Shown here in pieces: positions 1-10,912 of a stretch of DNA of 20,000 nt; positions within the stretch are counted from its first letter, which is position 1, and every line of letters starts with the position of its first letter. Source of the stretch: an uncultured virus (IMG/VR IMGVR_UViG_3300021092_000028) (lineage: Duplodnaviria; Heunggongvirae; Uroviricota; Caudoviricetes); the IMG/VR virus record IMGVR_UViG_3300021092_000028; one strand, written 5' to 3'. The notes below the pieces were generated by a model. The model was not told the DNA's origin, did not search any database, and worked only from the letters and a program-made list of their open reading frames with translations. The position numbers were made by a program, and so were the translations under genes.

Positions 1-3000
1 TCATAATTTTCAATGTTTGTGATTGAGATAGTGTCAGTTGTAGTATCAGAAATTGGAGACGCAAGAGTAGTAGTAATTCCTGCATATTTTGTAAACAGTC
101 TTCCAGAACCACTATCATTAGTAAAGTCTATATTACCACCACTTGAACTATATCCTGGGTGATGAATATAAAGAGTTCCTGAAATTGTAGGAGCAAAAGT
201 ATTAATTCCTACATTTAAGGTGAATGATGTTGAAGAACCAACTCTCTTAACTACAAAGTCATCGTTATAGAAACTCTCGGAAGCACCACTTAGACGAACT
301 TTATTATCAACCTTAAGTCCATGGTAATCACTGGTTGTTACAATACCAAGACCTGTTGTTGGATTGTAACTAAATGCAGAGACAACTACTGATCTTCCGG
401 ATAGATATGCAGTTGAATTTGAAGTAACTACAGATCCAATTCCAAGAGTTGTAGCAGCTCCAATGCTTCTAGTAGATTCAACAACAATCTGCTTTGGTTT
501 TCCGATTGGAACATCAGTAATTCTATAGATCTCATTATATCCATCATAAGTTTTCGATCTAATAGCATCAATTACAAGAGTATCTCCAATGTTGTTGTAT
601 ATTTTGGTTACATTTACAACACCAACTGTATGTCCAGTAGTAGTTGCGATACCTACGACAGATAGTGTATTACCAATACCGTAAGCACTGCCGCCGTCCA
701 TAATCTTGACAGCGGTAATATTTCCACTTGCATTAACAGTGACTCTAGCAGTAGCATCAGATCCAGTGACTGAAGCACCAATACTTACGAGTTTTGCATT
801 ATAAAATGTTTGTGCGGATCCATTTCCATATCCAGCACCACTATTAGCAATTCCAACTTGAATAATACGGTTCAAACCGTGGTTATAATCTGTATGAATT
901 GTATGCCCAACACCAGACAAGGAAACAATATCTGTAATACCAATTCCAGAGCGAGAATCTAGAAGAGAAGCATTAAGAGTTTCTTTTGTAATACTGTGCT
1001 GAGGATCATCAATTGCAACTTGACCAATTGGATTTGGAAGTGCAAAAGATACAGATGGTTTTGGATCTGATGTTGGATTATCTCTATTTGTCTGAGGATA
1101 GAAATTCTGAATTGGTTGAGAGAATCTCAGATTAGTAAATGGAGTTACATTTGGACTATTGGATGAATTTAGGACAAACAGATGATAGATACCATCTTGC
1201 TTTCCTGGAATATATTTTTGAACTTCTTGTGATCGGTAGATGTAATAAGTTCCATTATATTTCTTACGTGCAAATCTTGGAAGATCTGCATCACGAGTAG
1301 TAGTATCATTCGTGAAAGTTCCTGGATTTGTTTCCAGTGAATAATTAAACTCTTTTGTACTTGGAACAGAAGTTACAGTATATGTTCCATTATAACCAGT
1401 GGGTGTTACTTTTTCAATCTTAACACGATCACCAACTCTCAGTCCGTGAGGAAGTTCTGATGTTATCGTGGTAATTCCAGAAGTCCAAGTTGCATTTGCA
1501 ACGAATTTTGGATTTCTTAGTTCATTTTCATTTGTAAGAGTTGCTCCAGAAACACTGAAATATGCAGCGTTCTCTGCATCAGTATATCCACTGGAGTTTG
1601 TTGATTCTTGAATTACAAATCCATCAATAGGTGGTCTAGCAGTGGTAATTCCAGATCCTGCTGGAATACAATATCTCAATCTATAAACAGTATCTACTAA
1701 GCCTCTATTATCAGTTCTTCTAGTAATATAAGTTCTTGATGTTGCATCACCAAGATTTGTTGCACCCAATGAACGAATTTGAGAATAGATTCCATTCTCT
1801 GTTGATGCAGCAGATACGTTTAGATACCACTGATTTTGTGTTGTATCATACTGAATTGGGTGGCCAATATCCCCAGATTGTTTATCACTTACTCTACTTA
1901 TAACTGTTAGAGTTCCCCCTGCAGTGTTGAAGGTTAATGTAGTTGGTGAACTATTAATTGCATCGTTCAGAGTTTGTGCTACTTTTATTTGTGTTGATCC
2001 AATTCCAGTTGCACTTGTAACAGCATAATAAATTCTATTACTTTCTAAACCATCTGGTAGTTGTCCTGTATTGCTGATGATACGAATAGATTCGCCAGAA
2101 ATAAATGAGTGGTCTGTTGCAAATCCTAAAGTGTTGTTAGAAATATTACCAACAATTAAGCTCTTTTCTGAAGTTGATGTAGAGAATCCTACACCATTAT
2201 CAGGCATCACAATACGTGATGAGTATTCTGTAGTGACTCCAGATTGAGAAACAAGAACCTTTAGAGTATCCCCATACTTTGCACCAATTCGATATCCTTC
2301 TACAGAACTTTCTGGTGATATATCCTGATTGGTTTCACCATATAAGTACAAACGTGAAGTTGTTGCAGCTCCTGCAGATACTGAAGTAGTTACTCCTACA
2401 TCAATTGCAGTAAATTCAACACTAACTTCCTCAGTTTCAAGTTCCTTAGGTGGAACAATATGAGTTACATATCCAACATCATCTCTTGGGAATACATCTT
2501 TTCTATATCCCGATGCAACAAGTGACTTAGCACCGAAGTTAGAGTTAGAGTTTGTAATGGATTGATCTCCACCACCTTCAGCGACAAAGTGACCTGCAAA
2601 ACCAATTGCAAAGATTGAAACTAACTGAAGAATAGATCCATTCGAACACTTAATATGATAGTTTTCATAATCAGGTTTGTAAAGTGCTGTAGAATCGGTA
2701 TTAATATTTGCGTTTGCAGGAACCTCTGCACCTTGATAGATTCCTGTTGTTGAATTATATTTTACAAATGCGTTTCTATCTTTCTGTAGACCAATACCAG
2801 TAAACTGGGCAACAACCATCGATTTGAAACCTGTTGCATTATTTCCATCTGCGTGAAGACCGCACATACCATAAACAGATCTCAATGAAATATTGAAGAC
2901 GTATGGTGATGCAGAAGAAACTGTATCAACAACTAGATTTACAAGAGCTCCTGCTGTTGATGGTAGAGCAACTTCTGGTGGATTTGATACTTCGTATTGG

Positions 3001-4052
3001 AATTGAGTATCACTAACACGATTACTGACTACAAATTGTCCATTATAACTTGTTGCTCCAGTTGTTGGAACACCTTCAACACGAATTGGAGTGTCAACAT
3101 CAAGACCACCAAGTTCTTCTGTAGTTGTAACAGTAATTGTTGTGGTGGGTGTTACACCATTACCTGCCTTGATGCTACTGATTCCAACTGTTCCTCCAGT
3201 TGCTCCAACAATACGATATTCATCAACTTTTGGTTGAATGTCAATAGCATTTGAAGGATAATCTGGTTGAATTTCTCTTCCAGAAGATGGACCATATACA
3301 AGTCCAATCTTTTCATAATACATATCAAGATCAGTACGATCTGTAGAGTAAGTCTGAAACTCGTCATCAATGTTTACACTATTAATACCATCAGCATACT
3401 CAAAGCAAGTGAGTTTATGGTGCGAAAAGTTAGGAATAAATGTATTAGTAGTGTAGTCCTTATAAATGAAACTATTTGGACTTGCATCAAAAATGGTAAA
3501 TTGCCACAAGTAGCAAGAACCTGTCAATCTAAAAATTGCAGATCTCTCAATATTATCGTTTTCTGGGTTTGGTACGTATTTTGGACGGATCGTGGTTTTT
3601 CTTAGATCCATACCAACGATTGATGTACCACGAGGTAAAATTACACCCCCGTGAATACTATTCATTTTATAGAGAGCATTATTATCAGTTGTTAAATCAA
3701 AGTTTGTACTAAGACCAAATTGAGAAAAATCTGTAGAGGTAGTGCCGTTTCTCAATCTGAAGTTTGTTACGCCACCAGAGACACCATCAGGTATCCAACC
3801 AGGACGGTTATCAATTAAATGCTCTCCAGGATAAACAAGAATAGTTGTTTTTCCAAATCTATCATTATCTAAACCTGCCTGCCACGAAAATCTTGCAGAC
3901 TCAATTAAAGCTCTTTGAATCGTTTTGAACGGTCTTGTTAAAGAATTTCCTTGATTTTCAATACTGTCAGTAGCATCAAGGTCATTTGGATTAACATAAA
4001 GAATATTTCCACGAACATTCTTGATGAAATTATCTAAGCGACTGAGTGGCAT
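1..4052 (-). CDS. Large virion structural / tail-fibre-like protein (N-terminal ~1350 codons; continues past the left edge of the window)
   Basis: Absent from the ORF track because it has no stop in the window. Manual translation from ATG at 4052 gives MPLSRLDNFIKNVRGNILYVNPNDLDATDSIENQGNSLTRPFKTIQRALIESARFSWQAGLDNDRFGKTTILVYPGEHLIDNRPG, and the same frame is open at the left edge (...SPISDTTTDTISITNIENY). The N-terminal YV..GNS..RPFKTIQRAL motif is typical of beta-helix-type cyanophage fibre proteins, and there are several internal HGL-type repeats. A late-promoter-like CTAAATA precedes it. I spot-checked the frame rather than translating every codon. Confidence 0.88.
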   Translation of the reverse strand, partial: MPLSRLDNFIKNVRGNILYVNPNDLDATDSIENQGNSLTRPFKTIQRALIESARFSWQAGLDNDRFGKTTILVYPGEHLIDNRPGWIPDGVSGGVTNFRLRNGTTSTDFSQFGLSTNFDLTTDNNALYKMNSIHGGVILPRGTSIVGMDLRKTTIRPKYVPNPENDNIERSAIFRLTGSCYLWQFTIFDASPNSFIYKDYTTNTFIPNFSHHKLTCFEYADGINSVNIDDEFQTYSTDRTDLDMYYEKIGLVYGPSSGREIQPDYPSNAIDIQPKVDEYRIVGATGGTVGISSIKAGNGVTPTTTITVTTTEELGGLDVDTPIRVEGVPTTGATSYNGQFVVSNRVSDTQFQYEVSNPPEVALPSTAGALVNLVVDTVSSASPYVFNISLRSVYGMCGLHADGNNATGFKSMVVAQFTGIGLQKDRNAFVKYNSTTGIYQGAEVPANANINTDSTALYKPDYENYHIKCSNGSILQLVSIFAIGFAGHFVAEGGGDQSITNSNSNFGAKSLVASGYRKDVFPRDDVGYVTHIVPPKELETEEVSVEFTAIDVGVTTSVSAGAATTSRLYLYGETNQDISPESSVEGYRIGAKYGDTLKVLVSQSGVTTEYSSRIVMPDNGVGFSTSTSEKSLIVGNISNNTLGFATDHSFISGESIRIISNTGQLPDGLESNRIYYAVTSATGIGSTQIKVAQTLNDAINSSPTTLTFNTAGGTLTVISRVSDKQSGDIGHPIQYDTTQNQWYLNVSAASTENGIYSQIRSLGATNLGDATSRTYITRRTDNRGLVDTVYRLRYCIPAGSGITTARPPIDGFVIQESTNSSGYTDAENAAYFSVSGATLTNENELRNPKFVANATWTSGITTITSELPHGLRVGDRVKIEKVTPTGYNGTYTVTSVPSTKEFNYSLETNPGTFTNDTTTRDADLPRFARKKYNGTYYIYRSQEVQKYIPGKQDGIYHLFVLNSSNSPNVTPFTNLRFSQPIQNFYPQTNRDNPTSDPKPSVSFALPNPIGQVAIDDPQHSITKETLNASLLDSRSGIGITDIVSLSGVGHTIHTDYNHGLNRIIQVGIANSGAGYGNGSAQTFYNAKLVSIGASVTGSDATARVTVNASGNITAVKIMDGGSAYGIGNTLSVVGIATTTGHTVGVVNVTKIYNNIGDTLVIDAIRSKTYDGYNEIYRITDVPIGKPKQIVVESTRSIGAATTLGIGSVVTSNSTAYLSGRSVVVSAFSYNPTTGLGIVTTSDYHGLKVDNKVRLSGASESFYNDDFVVKRVGSSTSFTLNVGINTFAPTISGTLYIHHPGYSSSGGNIDFTNDSGSGRLFTKYAGITTTLASPISDTTTDTISITNIENY

Positions 4053-4082
4053 CTTATTCGCACTTTGAGTTCTATTATGATT

Positions 4083-4089
4083 TATTTAG
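4083..4089 (-). promoter_or_regulatory. T4-type late promoter variant (CTAAATA) for the large fibre gene
   Basis: Minus strand reads TCTAAATAAATC about 30 nt upstream of the ATG at 4052, just after a terminator. It matches the TAAATA core of the gp55-dependent TATAAATA late promoter. Confidence 0.65.
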
Positions 4090-4091
4090 AC

Positions 4092-4123
4092 ACAAGAAAA
4101 CCCCCGATTGCTCGGAGGTTTTC
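4092..4123 (-). terminator. Rho-independent terminator
   Basis: Minus strand GAAAACCTCCGA-GCAA-TCGGGGGTTTTC-TTGT forms a 12-bp stem with one U:G pair and a GNRA tetraloop, with a U-rich 3' end. Confidence 0.88.
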
Positions 4124-4157
4124 AAGTTAGCACTTAGGCAATTCCTTCACACGGGCT
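4092..4157 (-). ncRNA. Candidate small RNA (~65 nt)
   Basis: Bounded by a sigma70-like promoter (4163-4192) and an intrinsic terminator (4092-4123), with no meaningful ORF. Predicted 5' sequence AGCCCGUGUGAAGGAAUUGCC. Inference from sequence signals only. Confidence 0.5.
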
Positions 4158-4162
4158 TGTAT

Positions 4163-4192
4163 ATTTTACCACTTTTCCTCTTTCCAAGTCAA
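4163..4192 (-). promoter_or_regulatory. sigma70-like promoter (TTGACT-N18-TAAAAT with extended -10 TG) embedded in the 3' end of the Mom-like gene
   Basis: -35 TTGACT at 4192-4187, TG at 4171-4170 and -10 TAAAAT at 4168-4163, overlapping the stop codon of the upstream CDS. Confidence 0.6.
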
Positions 4193-4774
4193 GCGTTTTT
4201 GTAGTTCTTTATCAAATACCATAAGGTATCTATGCTTTCTACTTCTATCTCTCCATTCACCTTCAGAACCTTTTACTTTTCCACGAGAGTGTTTAGTTCC
4301 GTCTGAATAGTAGAAATCTTTTTTTCTATCCGTGAGACCGTAGTACTTAAAGTTGCAAGCGCGATAAATTGTACCAGAATGGTGATTTGAATCAGCATAA
4401 GAAAGGATTGCTTTAACTTCAGTATCTTTCCGAAGTTGTCTAATCGCTCTTGAAACAAACCAAGAAGTGATGTTATATTCCAAAGACTGGATATCAGGTC
4501 TGATGCAGAGTCTTGAGAGTTCAAAGAGTCCTTGTTGTTCGTTTCTTTCAAGACCAAATGCTCCTTTTGCTATTTCTGGAACTGGGAGACCAGTAAAAAT
4601 GCAGACGCCAACAGACCCACCAATATTAAGGACATCTGTGAATGACTTTCTGTAAAGTGAGTAATTATATCCACTCTTGAAATCTTTTGATTCGTCTTTA
4701 AGATAATGGTAAGTATAAAGAAGTTCTTTGATTTCTTCTTTACTCACTTTATCTAGGTAAAAATCCGATTTCAT
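4166..4774 (-). CDS. Mom-like GNAT-fold DNA (adenine) modification protein
   Basis: 202 aa with motifs HYL, FELSRLCI, SWFVSRAIRQLRK, ILSYADSNHHSGTIYRACNFKYYG and a C-terminal KHRY. This motif series is characteristic of the phage Mu Mom family (ELxRL ... SYAD..GH.G.IY.A.N..Y.G). Confidence 0.75.
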   Translation of the reverse strand: MKSDFYLDKVSKEEIKELLYTYHYLKDESKDFKSGYNYSLYRKSFTDVLNIGGSVGVCIFTGLPVPEIAKGAFGLERNEQQGLFELSRLCIRPDIQSLEYNITSWFVSRAIRQLRKDTEVKAILSYADSNHHSGTIYRACNFKYYGLTDRKKDFYYSDGTKHSRGKVKGSEGEWRDRSRKHRYLMVFDKELQKRLTWKEEKW

Positions 4775-5124: not shown

Positions 5125-5197
5125 AGCCCCCAGACGGAATTGAACCGTCCTCTCCGCTTTACAAGAGCGGTACATCGCCACTTAATGCTTTAGAGGC
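5125..5197 (-). tRNA. trnT: tRNA-Thr(UGU), 73 nt, CCA not encoded
   Basis: GCCTCTA-AA-GCAT-TAAGTGGCG-ATGT-A-CCGCT-CTTGTAA-AGCGG-AGAG-GACGG-TTCAATT-CCGTC-TGGGGGC-T forms a full cloverleaf with anticodon TGT. Confidence 0.93.
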
Positions 5198-5499: not shown

Positions 5500-5512
5500 A
5501 GGTAGAACCTCA

Positions 5513-5585
5513 TACCCGTGGGCGGATTCGAACCGCCCCTGGAGGAGTTTTAAGCTCCCTGTCTCTGCCGCTGGACTACACGGGC
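5513..5585 (-). tRNA. trnL: tRNA-Leu(UAA), 73 nt, short variable loop, CCA not encoded
   Basis: GCCCGTG-TA-GTC-CAGCGGCAGA-GAC-A-GGGAG-CTTAAAA-CTCCT-CCAGG-GGCGG-TTCGAAT-CCGCC-CACGGGT-A forms a cloverleaf with anticodon TAA and discriminator A. Confidence 0.92.
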
Positions 5586-5592
5586 AAAAAAC

Positions 5593-5796
5593 TTACACTT
5601 CGTAAGTAGTAGGATTATACTTGATAAACTCCCAGAATGTCAACTTCATTTCTTTTTGTGACATTCCACAGTGCTTTGCTGCTTTAGGGAGATTCCACTT
5701 GGCACAAAAGAGTGCTTCATTTGCCTCTTTTACATTATCTGGAGTGGTTTTGATTGGTTCCTCTTTGAGGTCTTTGTATGAAATCTTATAAGGCAT
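5593..5796 (-). CDS. Small hypothetical protein (67 aa), possible HTH-like segment (NLPKAAKHCGMSQKEMK)
   Basis: Track ORF with an ATG start, co-directional with its neighbours. The AA..CGMS pattern resembles a helix-turn-helix. Confidence 0.75.
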   Translation of the reverse strand: MPYKISYKDLKEEPIKTTPDNVKEANEALFCAKWNLPKAAKHCGMSQKEMKLTFWEFIKYNPTTYEV

Positions 5797-6066: not shown

Positions 6067-6095
6067 ATTATAGGGGAAGACCCTAGGGGTGTCAA
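6067..6095 (-). promoter_or_regulatory. Perfect consensus sigma70 (early) promoter TTGACA-N17-TATAAT
   Basis: Minus strand TTGACA (6095-6090) CCCCTAGGGTCTTCCCC TATAAT (6072-6067). The -35 box overlaps the TGA stop of the upstream gene. Confidence 0.9.
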
Positions 6096-10672: not shown

Positions 10673-10888
10673 TTAATCATCATATATTCTACATTCAAGT
10701 GCAGTTGGGTTTAGATCACAATAAAGTTCTAATGGTGTTGGATCGTGTTCATCATCTGGATGATTCACTTGATATTTTTCAAGTGAATATAATTCATCTT
10801 CTAGATGACGACGACGTTGTGAATTAGTATCTGGATTATCCAGTTCATCACGATCATCATTGATGTGTTGGGAAAGTGTTCTATCCAT
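10673..10888 (-). CDS. cp12: CP12 Calvin-cycle inhibitor protein (phage auxiliary metabolic gene)
   Basis: 71 aa from the ATG at 10888. The C-terminal DPTPLELYCDLNPTALECRIYDD matches the CP12 signature (LE.YC..NP...EC..YD). The N-terminal Cys pair is absent, as in picocyanobacterial and cyanophage CP12. Confidence 0.92.
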   Translation of the reverse strand: MDRTLSQHINDDRDELDNPDTNSQRRRHLEDELYSLEKYQVNHPDDEHDPTPLELYCDLNPTALECRIYDD

Positions 10889-10912
10889 ATTGAACACACA
10901 GTTAGTTGTTAT

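Follow-up and report, generated by a model that had tools for sequence, protein, structure and literature searches.

A small RNA gene of T4-like cyanophages with complementarity to host tRNA-Val(CAC)

Introduction

What does a phage do with a transcription unit that is too short to encode a protein? The question is raised by a gap of 113 nucleotides (nt) between a Mom-like DNA-modification gene and a tail-fibre gene, in a stretch of 20,000 nt from an uncultured virus of the Caudoviricetes (IMG/VR record IMGVR_UViG_3300021092_000028). We refer to this whole stretch, which is a piece of a T4-like cyanomyovirus, as the window. An earlier interpretation that was made from the letters alone (the sequence-only reading) had described a self-contained small RNA in the gap and had suggested that it might be a sponge for the host small RNA Yfr1 or a mimic of Yfr2, an RNA that can pair with Yfr1. 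The observation is confirmed, while its interpretation is only partly supported: every sequence class of the unit has a much better predicted partner than Yfr1, namely the host tRNA-Val(CAC).

Promoter, terminator, and conservation of the small RNA unit

The unit is on the minus strand, in the gap and the adjoining end of the Mom-like gene, and its parts are as follows.

4192..4187, minus strand: -35 hexamer TTGACT, within the last codons of the Mom-like gene
4171..4163, minus strand: extended -10, TGgTAAAAT (TG at 4171..4170, TAAAAT at 4168..4163), with an 18-nt spacer from the -35
4157..4155, minus strand: predicted transcription start, 6–8 nt past the -10, placed by spacing
4157..4094, minus strand: predicted small RNA of about 62–64 nt, from the predicted start to the end of the U-rich tail
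4154..4141, minus strand: CCGUGUGAAGGAAU, the 5' motif of the predicted RNA
4154..4142, minus strand: CCGUGUGAAGGAA, a 13-nt exact complement of host tRNA-Val(CAC)
4152..4141, minus strand: the 12-mer GTGTGAAGGAAT, its sole exact copy in the window
4140..4127, minus strand: putative remnant of a D-arm complement (UGC .. CUA .. GUGCUAA, with deletions), from the alignment to antisense tRNA-Val
4123..4096, minus strand: intrinsic terminator hairpin of 12 pairs (6 of them G-C), with a U-rich tail to about 4091

The promoter (TTGACT-N18-TAAAAT with an upstream TG) lies where the sequence-only reading had placed it. The terminator is strong, as that reading had also said, and its stem is the longest among the 16 terminator-like sites in the window. 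Because only about 62–64 nt separate the start from the end of the U-tail, there is no room for a gene, and the unit contains no open reading frame (ORF); with a promoter and an intrinsic terminator of its own, it has the sequence-level marks of an independent small RNA gene. In the centroid fold of the predicted RNA, the 5' motif is unpaired and the terminator hairpin is formed.

Taken alone, the window does not set this unit apart. It contains 62 promoter-like sites, as compared to 62.6 ± 7.1 in shuffled sequences, so the promoter by itself is not above chance. The 12-mer is also at chance level (3 copies with up to two mismatches in the window, with 2.9 expected). Furthermore, the -35 and the -10 lie within coding sequence, and the -10 overlaps the TAA stop codon (4168..4166) of the Mom-like ORF; the RNA does not include the Mom-like gene, whose 3' end nevertheless contains the promoter. 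A plain explanation would be that the region is only the 3' untranslated region and terminator of the Mom-like mRNA and that the two hexamers arise incidentally from the coding of ...LTWKEEKW-stop. The unit is conserved in relatives, however, which lifts it out of the range of chance.

We scanned 600 viral stretches, of which 595 contained a Mom-like relative, and kept 80 as related loci. At 64 of the 80, a GUGUG core is followed by a hairpin and a T-run; a promoter of the form TTGACN-N16-19-TRNNNT, with the -35 at matching spacing, is also kept at 64; and both are present together at 57. Sixteen loci failed the automated test for the unit. When inspected by eye, four of them (L020, L026, L027, and L044) show both the motif and a hairpin, whose T-run is interrupted, and behind Mom the remaining ones carry different DNA. 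The -10 of many relatives is TGGTATAAT, so that the stop codon of Mom is abolished and the ORF ends at varied later points with an altered protein end, although the position of the promoter is unchanged. Since the -10 is kept while the stop codon shifts, the promoter is not a mere by-product of coding. Also, the sequence from the stop codon to the hairpin is conserved although termination does not need it.

The unit is found without Mom as well. Four cultured marine phages (S-SM2, Bellamy, S-B43, and S-SCSM2R) have a unit with a sigma70-type promoter before the tail-fibre late promoter, and in S-CAM1, which also lacks Mom, it stands directly behind tRNA-Asn and again before the tail-fibre late promoter. 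A second locus lies downstream of gp23 (the major capsid gene) in Syn9, Syn19, Syn33, S-SSM5, S-SM1, and S-MbCM100; in Syn9, it falls at about 119,420–119,465 of NC_008296. There, a late-type ATAAATA or CTAAATA stands 5–6 nt before the first conserved base of the RNA, and another late promoter lies past the terminator; at such a locus, the motif could be the 3' end of abundant late mRNAs. A BLAST search with the Mom-like protein against cultured phages gave no cyanophage match (the best match, at 55%, was from a Roseobacter phage), so Mom is not a constant partner of the unit. (The Mom-like gene is common in uncultured relatives, given the 595 confirmed viral stretches.)

The promoter-motif-terminator combination that the sequence-only reading had proposed looking for in cyanophages thus recurs both in uncultured relatives and in cultured phages, and its claim of a self-contained unit, rather than just a 3' untranslated region of Mom, stands: the unit is conserved at the 57 loci and occurs with its own promoter behind unrelated genes and behind tRNAs. 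That the region is nothing but the end of the Mom-like mRNA seems to us scarcely credible. Instead, these comparisons establish the minus strand from 4192 to 4091 as a predicted small RNA gene, with its own promoter and terminator, that belongs to a large family in T4-like cyanophages.

Complementarity to the anticodon arm of a host tRNA

We searched with an exact 15-mer of the common form of the motif, GTGTGAAGGAAGTGC, which matched at least 120 viral stretches, both marine and freshwater, with 109 distinct contexts among the matches listed. One of these contexts is a tRNA-Val(CAC) gene that contains the 15-mer on its other strand, from which it follows that the motif is the reverse complement of the anticodon arm CUUCC-UUCACAC-GGAAG plus flanks. 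Within it, GUGUGA(A) is the complement of the anticodon loop, UUCACAC. A 21-mer of tRNA-Val(CAC) is present in at least 119 genome stretches, among them those of Synechococcus WH7803 (the isolation host of several of the cultured phages that bear the unit), Cyanobium, other picocyanobacteria, and unrelated phyla; since unrelated phyla share it, this version of tRNA-Val(CAC) is common among bacteria. At 167–241, a 7.6-kb AT-rich viral contig (L154) also has a tRNA-Val(CAC) gene whose anticodon arm is the same and whose acceptor stem is unlike the picocyanobacterial one.

The units fall into four classes, all of which, when aligned to the antisense strand of the WH7803 tRNA-Val(CAC), are complementary to, and collinear with, the host tRNA. 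Class 1, to which the window belongs, starts with (CC)GUGUGAAGGAA(G)UGC; class 2 is GGCGAUACU..CCAAACCCCUUCCGUGUGAC; class 3 is GACGAUACUGAAUCGUUACAGUGACCCAAAAAGUGUGAC; and class 4 has both flanks. GUGUGA is the sole sequence that is common to all four, and GUGUGA(A) is predicted to be single-stranded and lies either at the 5' end of the RNA or immediately before the terminator. On one side, the complementarity of the window and of the GUGUGAAGGAAGUGC forms continues along the 5' strand of the anticodon stem and the D arm. On the other side, that of the GGCGAUACU...CCCCUUCCGUGUGA forms continues along the 3' strand, the variable loop, the T arm, and the acceptor. Because two independent kinds of sequence extend into opposite strands of one stem, chance is no explanation.

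The exact blocks are 16 nt long in class 1b and S-SM2 and 17 nt long in Syn9 and S-MbCM100. Class 2 has 15 exact nt on the other side of the loop and then GGCGAUAC(UG), the complement of the 3' strand of the acceptor, and class 3 has the complement of the acceptor, the T arm, and the variable loop, followed by GUGUGA. Across the class alignment, GTGTGAAGG is invariant: the complement of the loop is fixed, and the remainder drifts. In the commonest relatives, the tRNA complement starts 6 nt past the -10.

In the window, the 13 exact nt of CCGUGUGAAGGAA are complementary to the 5' stem strand and the loop of the anticodon arm and to the beginning of its 3' stem strand. They are followed by a single mismatch (U4141, where the complement of tRNA-Val(CAC) calls for G) and then by collinear UGC, CUA, and GUGCUAA, which look like remnants of a D-arm complement. 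The unit of the window thus combines the complement of the anticodon loop with that of one stem strand, collinear with further parts of the tRNA. The gapped score of the window against antisense tRNA-Val was 32, while 300 shuffled sequences scored 12.3 ± 1.9, with a maximum of 20.

We searched 41 distinct WH7803 tRNAs against the whole genomes of Syn9 and S-SM2 for exact matches of at least 15 nt, and all of the matches were in sense phage tRNA genes except for one antisense match to tRNA-Val(cac) in each genome. Antisense copies of other host tRNAs of at least 15 nt were not found in Syn9, S-SM2, or G001, a virus record that is 100% identical to the window across 1001 nt around the unit and that we used to represent the phage of the window. 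For eight of eight phage RNAs, the predicted gain in energy from forming a dimer with tRNA-Val(CAC) (-12 to -24 kcal/mol) was beyond all 100 shuffles of that RNA.

It is nearly certain that the RNA bodies of the family copy part of host tRNA-Val(CAC) in antisense, and the copy in the window probably does so as well. We also considered whether the unit of the window could be a tRNA or tRNA-like RNA itself (RF00005), and neither ARAGORN nor the Rfam tRNA model identified a cloverleaf.

Homology to a tRNA might also be left behind by events at the DNA level. The unit could be the relic of an inverted tRNA-Val gene, or it could be a DNA site (for a homing endonuclease, for recombination, or att-like) that lies between a promoter and a terminator by chance. 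The slot is indeed a hot spot of variable genes (Mom-like, HNH, and small ORFs). Also, the homology of classes 2 and 3 spans the anticodon loop to the 3' end, and the attP identity blocks of elements that integrate into tRNA genes span the anticodon loop to the 3' end of the tRNA. Such a history would have to be squared with an orientation that is always antisense, with a promoter that is placed so that transcription begins at the homology, with a loop complement that is invariant while the flanks drift, and with the conservation of the 15-mer at three kinds of locus, in 120 or more contigs of marine and freshwater origin. We rejected an attP-type identity block for the window, where the block corresponds to the 5' half of the tRNA, unlike att blocks, and where no integrase family was matched among the 16 ORFs. 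Overall, we view a relic or a DNA site as very unlikely.

Possible pairing with Yfr1

The sequence-only reading had given ACUCCUCACAC as the conserved motif of Yfr1, which agrees with PMC2190773, and it had correctly counted nine pairs and one bulged A between this motif and the 12-mer at 4152..4141. The 5' motif of the phage RNA could thereby pair with the single-stranded ACUCCUCACAC of host Yfr1 (and of Yfr10) and relieve or rewire the control by Yfr1, as Yfr2 does. The 5' ends of host Yfr2 RNAs read GUGUGAGGAGUGC, and the common phage form, GUGUGAAGGAAGUGC, is the same string with two inserted A's; one contig (L065) has GUGUGAAGGAGUGC, which is one step nearer to Yfr2. The host Yfr1 reads ..CACACUCCUCACACC.., and its pairing comprises 9 base pairs with one bulge for the window and 11–12 base pairs with two bulges for the common form. 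According to PMC2190773, the Yfr1 motif is unpaired and accessible, and an interaction between Yfr2 and Yfr1 was demonstrated experimentally in PMC6778093. More broadly, Yfr2 (Cyano-1, RF01701) is, like the phage RNA, a short RNA with a single-stranded 5' GUGUGA(G/A)GGA.. and a terminator, and it acts by base-pairing with another small RNA (PMC6778093).

Other evidence separates the phage RNA from Yfr2. The search for Yfr2 in Rfam that the sequence-only reading had put forward came back empty: Cyano-1 (gathering score 41 bits) has no match in positions 4040–4220 of the window even at E ≤ 10, and the best score in G001 is 12.5 bits, which is elsewhere in that record. As a control, the same model recovered Yfr2 in three of three host genomes. 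The conserved internal loop of Yfr2, GUCGAAAC.AGG.CAGAC, is present in four of four host copies and absent from the RNA of the window, so that a phage-encoded RNA with neither a match to the family model nor the internal loop is set against the host family. The 5' motif is not fully complementary to ACUCCUCACAC, as there are bulges both in the window and in the common form. With its two extra A's, the phage motif fits tRNA-Val(CAC) perfectly and Yfr1 imperfectly, and likewise the strictly conserved AAGGAAG is a perfect complement of the tRNA and an imperfect one of Yfr1. Classes 2 and 3, which have the same slot and the same promoter, retain only the 6-mer GUGUGA toward Yfr1, and their flanks fit tRNA-Val. 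The predicted gain from cofolding with Yfr1 (-6 to -16 kcal/mol) was inside or at the edge of the range of 100 shuffles for eight of eight RNAs. Finally, Yfr1 is reported from nearly all cyanobacteria, including most Prochlorococcus, but the unit was not found in seven phages that were isolated on Prochlorococcus.

What remains of the Yfr2 mimic or Yfr1 sponge is the resemblance of the 5' motif to the 5' end of Yfr2; the missing match to Cyano-1 and a pairing gain that is within or at the edge of the shuffles speak against the rest, and we consider this function improbable. As to the alternative suggestion that AAGGA is a Shine-Dalgarno-like or protein-binding decoy, a Shine-Dalgarno sequence with a GUG start and a CsrA-type GGA decoy were both dropped by eye, as they are not conserved across the classes, and CRP-type and NtcA-type DNA sites were dropped in the same way.

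The comparison brought out a previously unnoticed likeness between the anticodon arm of tRNA-Val(CAC) and the ultraconserved motif of Yfr1. If two U's are taken out of positions 26–38 of this tRNA, ACUUCCUUCACAC, the result is the Yfr1 motif ACUCCUCACAC (host loci L339, L338, and L337 for Yfr1 and L243 for the tRNA), and the 5' motif of Yfr2 is the antisense of the same positions minus two A's. Judging from this likeness, the Yfr1-Yfr2 pair may descend from a pair of a tRNA and an antisense tRNA.

Locus types and possible leader functions

The 15-mer is found at three kinds of locus. In 87 of the 109 listed contexts, a -10-like hexamer is present 2–12 nt upstream, with a -35 as well in 47 of these 87; as the distance from the -10 to the 15-mer is usually 6 nt, the RNA would begin with the motif. 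A terminator comes next in 61 of the 109. In another 29, the motif is followed by a non-terminating hairpin and a phage tRNA gene, which makes it the leader of a tRNA transcript, and in two (L102 and L152) it lies directly after a tRNA. About 14 contexts resemble chance matches in unrelated coding DNA.

These arrangements raise the possibility that the element acts in cis, either as a leader or attenuator that guides the processing or stability of downstream tRNAs or as a minimal T-box-like switch in which tRNA-Val(CAC) sets read-through. Besides the 29 contexts that lead phage tRNA genes and the two that trail a tRNA, it could be said for this idea that the motif always adjoins a hairpin and that in S-RSM4 and Syn1 it trails the wcaG RNA, which is itself a riboswitch candidate. 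The downstream genes, though, have their own late promoter (at 70 of the 80 related loci), so read-through is not needed, and the motif is at either end of the RNA, depending on the class. There is also no sequence for pairing with the 3' end of the tRNA beside an antiterminator, and Rfam gave no match to T-box or any other leader family in positions 4040–4220 at E ≤ 10. T-box leaders are far longer than the ~63 nt of this RNA, and we rejected a T-box leader on its length and on the missing match. A cis-acting function of either sort is, in our judgment, a long shot.

Over the same positions and at the same threshold, Rfam reported 12 weak and unrelated matches, which were mostly terminator look-alikes, and Rfam 15 has no family at the small RNA locus.

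Two other RNAs adjoin the motif in parts of the family. In six contigs (L123, L126, L129, L132, L136, and L162), a conserved insert of about 45 nt, which starts with GGCACCGUGCCUGUGAAGGGAAACCUGAGG, extends from the motif to a phage tRNA-Leu or tRNA-Gly gene. At the gathering scores, Rfam identified only tRNAs in L126 and L132 and no family for the insert, which may be an unrecognised structured RNA. Also, the wcaG RNA (RF01761; 92 and 45 bits) is present in S-RSM4 (L430, 1501–1610) and Syn1 (L431), with a 16-mer complement of tRNA-Val(CAC) right after it, and the consensus of wcaG ends with positions that are similar to the start of the class-2 RNAs. By sequence, wcaG may carry an antisense-tRNA tail.

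Occurrence of the unit and of the tRNA

We asked whether the unit tracks the tRNA. The exact 17-nt anticodon arm occurs once in 121 of 201 genomes of the family of WH7803, and the reversed pattern, as a control, is in none of them. Its frequency varies with genome size: it is present in 95 of 99 genomes of at least 2.25 Mb, 12 of 18 at 1.95–2.25 Mb, 10 of 45 at 1.55–1.95 Mb, and 4 of 39 at 1.55 Mb or less. In five low-GC genomes of 1.7 Mb, a search with the WH7803 tRNA identified tRNA-Val(GAC) and tRNA-Val(UAC) and did not identify tRNA-Val(CAC). We infer that the small low-GC genomes are Prochlorococcus.

For the phages, we searched the whole genomes of 24 cultured T4-like cyanophages with two exact 11-mers and found 23 matches, as compared to 2 for the reversed controls (about 2 are expected per pattern). 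By this search, real units are present in 12 of 17 phages that were isolated on Synechococcus (14 of 17 if the wcaG-trailing variant in S-RSM4 and Syn1 is included) and in none of the seven that were isolated on Prochlorococcus. The 11-mer matches in P-TIM68, P-SSM7, S-PM2, and three other phages are in coding DNA and have neither a promoter nor a terminator. The difference between Synechococcus and Prochlorococcus phages has a P value of 0.0046 (Fisher exact test, two-sided), or 0.0003 with the variants. The unit thus appears to co-occur with host tRNA-Val(CAC).

Codon usage differs between phage and host. GUG accounts for 22 of the 416 valine codons (5.3%) in the 16 ORFs of the window and, by a crude measure (stop-free frames of at least 250 codons), for 49% and 37% of the valine codons in two host stretches, from WH7803 and Cyanobium. 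Among valine codons, GUG is the commonest in the host and the rarest in the phage, so disabling tRNA-Val(CAC) would slow the translation of the host more. The phage record of the window has only tRNA-Leu and tRNA-Thr, while Syn9 and S-SM2 carry tRNA-Val(UAC), which is also given for these phages in Table 1 of PMC11726456.

Antisense capture of tRNA-Val(CAC) as a candidate function

Antisense capture of host tRNA-Val(CAC) seems to be the likeliest function of the small RNA, and we put it forward tentatively. In the phage of the window, the RNA would be made early by the host RNA polymerase; in Syn9-like phages, it would be made from the late promoter instead. It would dock on the anticodon loop of the tRNA and zip into one strand of the anticodon stem, so that the tRNA would be withdrawn from charging and decoding or marked for cleavage. 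Host translation would then be slowed more than phage translation, and related phages would supply their own tRNA-Val(UAC). A stronger form of this proposal is doubtful: a codon-selective shut-off of the host, in which a very strongly transcribed RNA of 40–70 nt would inactivate or destroy tRNA-Val(CAC) and stall host ribosomes at GUG. (The public sequencing runs that match the window, 24 in all, are DNA.)

Several considerations weigh against capture of the tRNA. Some concern the alignments. Chance alone yields matches at least as long as the 13-nt exact match of the window when other tRNAs are compared with the same phage; the copy in the window is therefore assigned by its gapped alignment and by its relatives. 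A lenient local-alignment scoring (+2/-3/-5/-2) that put antisense tRNA-Val at the top for 50 of 58 distinct segments downstream of Mom also gave 27–32 to a chance similarity inside the Mom gene, which means that the case rests on the exact blocks, the collinearity, and the family. Others concern the mechanism: the mature form of a tRNA is modified and has a tight fold, which may keep the RNA from invading the stem; neither tertiary structure nor modifications enter the energy model, an omission that unduly favours the tRNA over Yfr1; the titration of an abundant tRNA requires a very abundant RNA; and some members of the family are leaders of phage tRNA genes or trail wcaG, which a purely trans-acting model does not fit. 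The choice of Val(CAC) is also unexplained, as all codons that end in G or C share the bias and there is no other antisense tRNA, and the host tRNA-Val(UAC) may read GUG by wobble. As for the census, it is small, the phages are interrelated, 8 of the 24 were reached via the unit or its neighbour, and a search with exact patterns can miss diverged copies. Among the 16 phages that were picked blind, the unit is in 5 of 10 versus 0 of 6 (P = 0.09), or in 7 of 10 with the variants (P = 0.011).

Relation to known systems

T4 encodes small stable RNAs other than tRNAs, species 1 and 2 (rnaC/rnaD), in its tRNA cluster; their function is unknown and some are co-transcribed with tRNAs. They are longer than the RNA described here, and none is known to be antisense to a host tRNA. 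In Herpesvirus saimiri, the RNA HSUR1 pairs with the host miR-27 and destroys it. The logic of a viral small RNA that removes a small non-coding RNA of the host would be the same, but that is a eukaryotic virus, with another class of target and other machinery. Phages are known to add tRNAs, and hosts to cut or withhold them, so if antisense capture is real, the removal of a host tRNA by pairing would be a new move for a phage, and tRNAs would be a new class of target for bacterial and viral small RNAs.

Another non-coding RNA of cyanophages, wcaG (RF01761), is a structured candidate riboswitch of 98 nt (PMC2864571); it has no match in the window, and the class-2 loci have none at E ≤ 1. The tRNA genes with which phages offset limits in host codons or tRNAs, as in the case of Syn9 and Synechococcus WH5701 (PMC11726456), are part of the same contest over the tRNA pool and codon use, but sense tRNAs add capacity and the antisense RNA would remove it. 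In a 2025 review of phage small RNAs (PMC12197685), the accessible text has only abiF, wcaG, manA, glnA, and CfrI as entries from cyanophages and does not contain the word tRNA.

We did not find a phage RNA that is antisense to a tRNA, or the motif printed in such a context, in the accessible text of the literature that we searched, and a transcript may have been sighted earlier in Syn9. Quite possibly, then, this is a base-pairing small RNA of phages that is aimed at a new sort of target; if true, it would be the first naturally occurring antisense RNA that serves as a weapon against a tRNA. The family is large, with at least 120 viral contigs by one 15-mer, and spans marine and freshwater cyanophages. 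As it has members in well-studied laboratory phages (Syn9, S-SM2, Syn19, and S-SM1), the idea is directly testable. It would also give a concrete reason for a gene that is linked to host range, as the unit is in phages whose hosts have tRNA-Val(CAC).

Neighbouring genes and other observations

Every long ORF of the window is on the minus strand, and the genes include those for T4 baseplate hub, tail tube, baseplate, and tail-lysozyme proteins, for CP12, and for the tail fibre. The elements next to the small RNA are listed here.

4774..4166, minus strand: Mom-like DNA-modification gene, the upstream neighbour (PF25680, 1.3e-21; phrog_1384)
4089..4083, minus strand: CTAAATA, a T4-type late-promoter-like motif for the tail-fibre gene, by match to the consensus
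4052..3, minus strand: tail-fibre gene, the downstream neighbour (ATG at 4052, runs off the window; phrog_529, E = 0)

The consensus for T4 late promoters is as quoted in PMC3037559, and [ACT]TAAATA is found at 70 of the 80 related loci. The only tRNAs in the window, by ARAGORN and at the Rfam gathering score, are Leu(taa) at 5512–5586 and Thr(tgt) at 5125–5197. Two perfect sigma70 promoters (TTGACA-17/18-TATAAT, 12 of 12 positions) are present on the minus strand at 6095..6067 and 5643..5614; one precedes a DUF7294 gene, and the other lies within the last part of a small ORF and directly precedes tRNA-Leu(UAA). A block of tRNAs and small genes is likely transcribed early from them. The CP12 gene (10897..10673, minus strand; PF02672, 2.8e-13) lies amid the baseplate and tail block.

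In the freshwater phage DSL-LC03 (L089, 340–700), the slot before the tail-fibre late promoter is taken up by tRNA genes and by G+C-rich non-coding DNA of about 250 nt, with no small RNA, and a copy of the motif is found 1.2 kb upstream with its own TTGACA-17-TATAAT. In Syn9, gp135 (L435, 865–897; 119464–119496 in the Syn9 genome) is annotated from a TTG in the U-tract of the terminator and spans the late promoter; an in-frame ATG 33 nt downstream looks like the true start.

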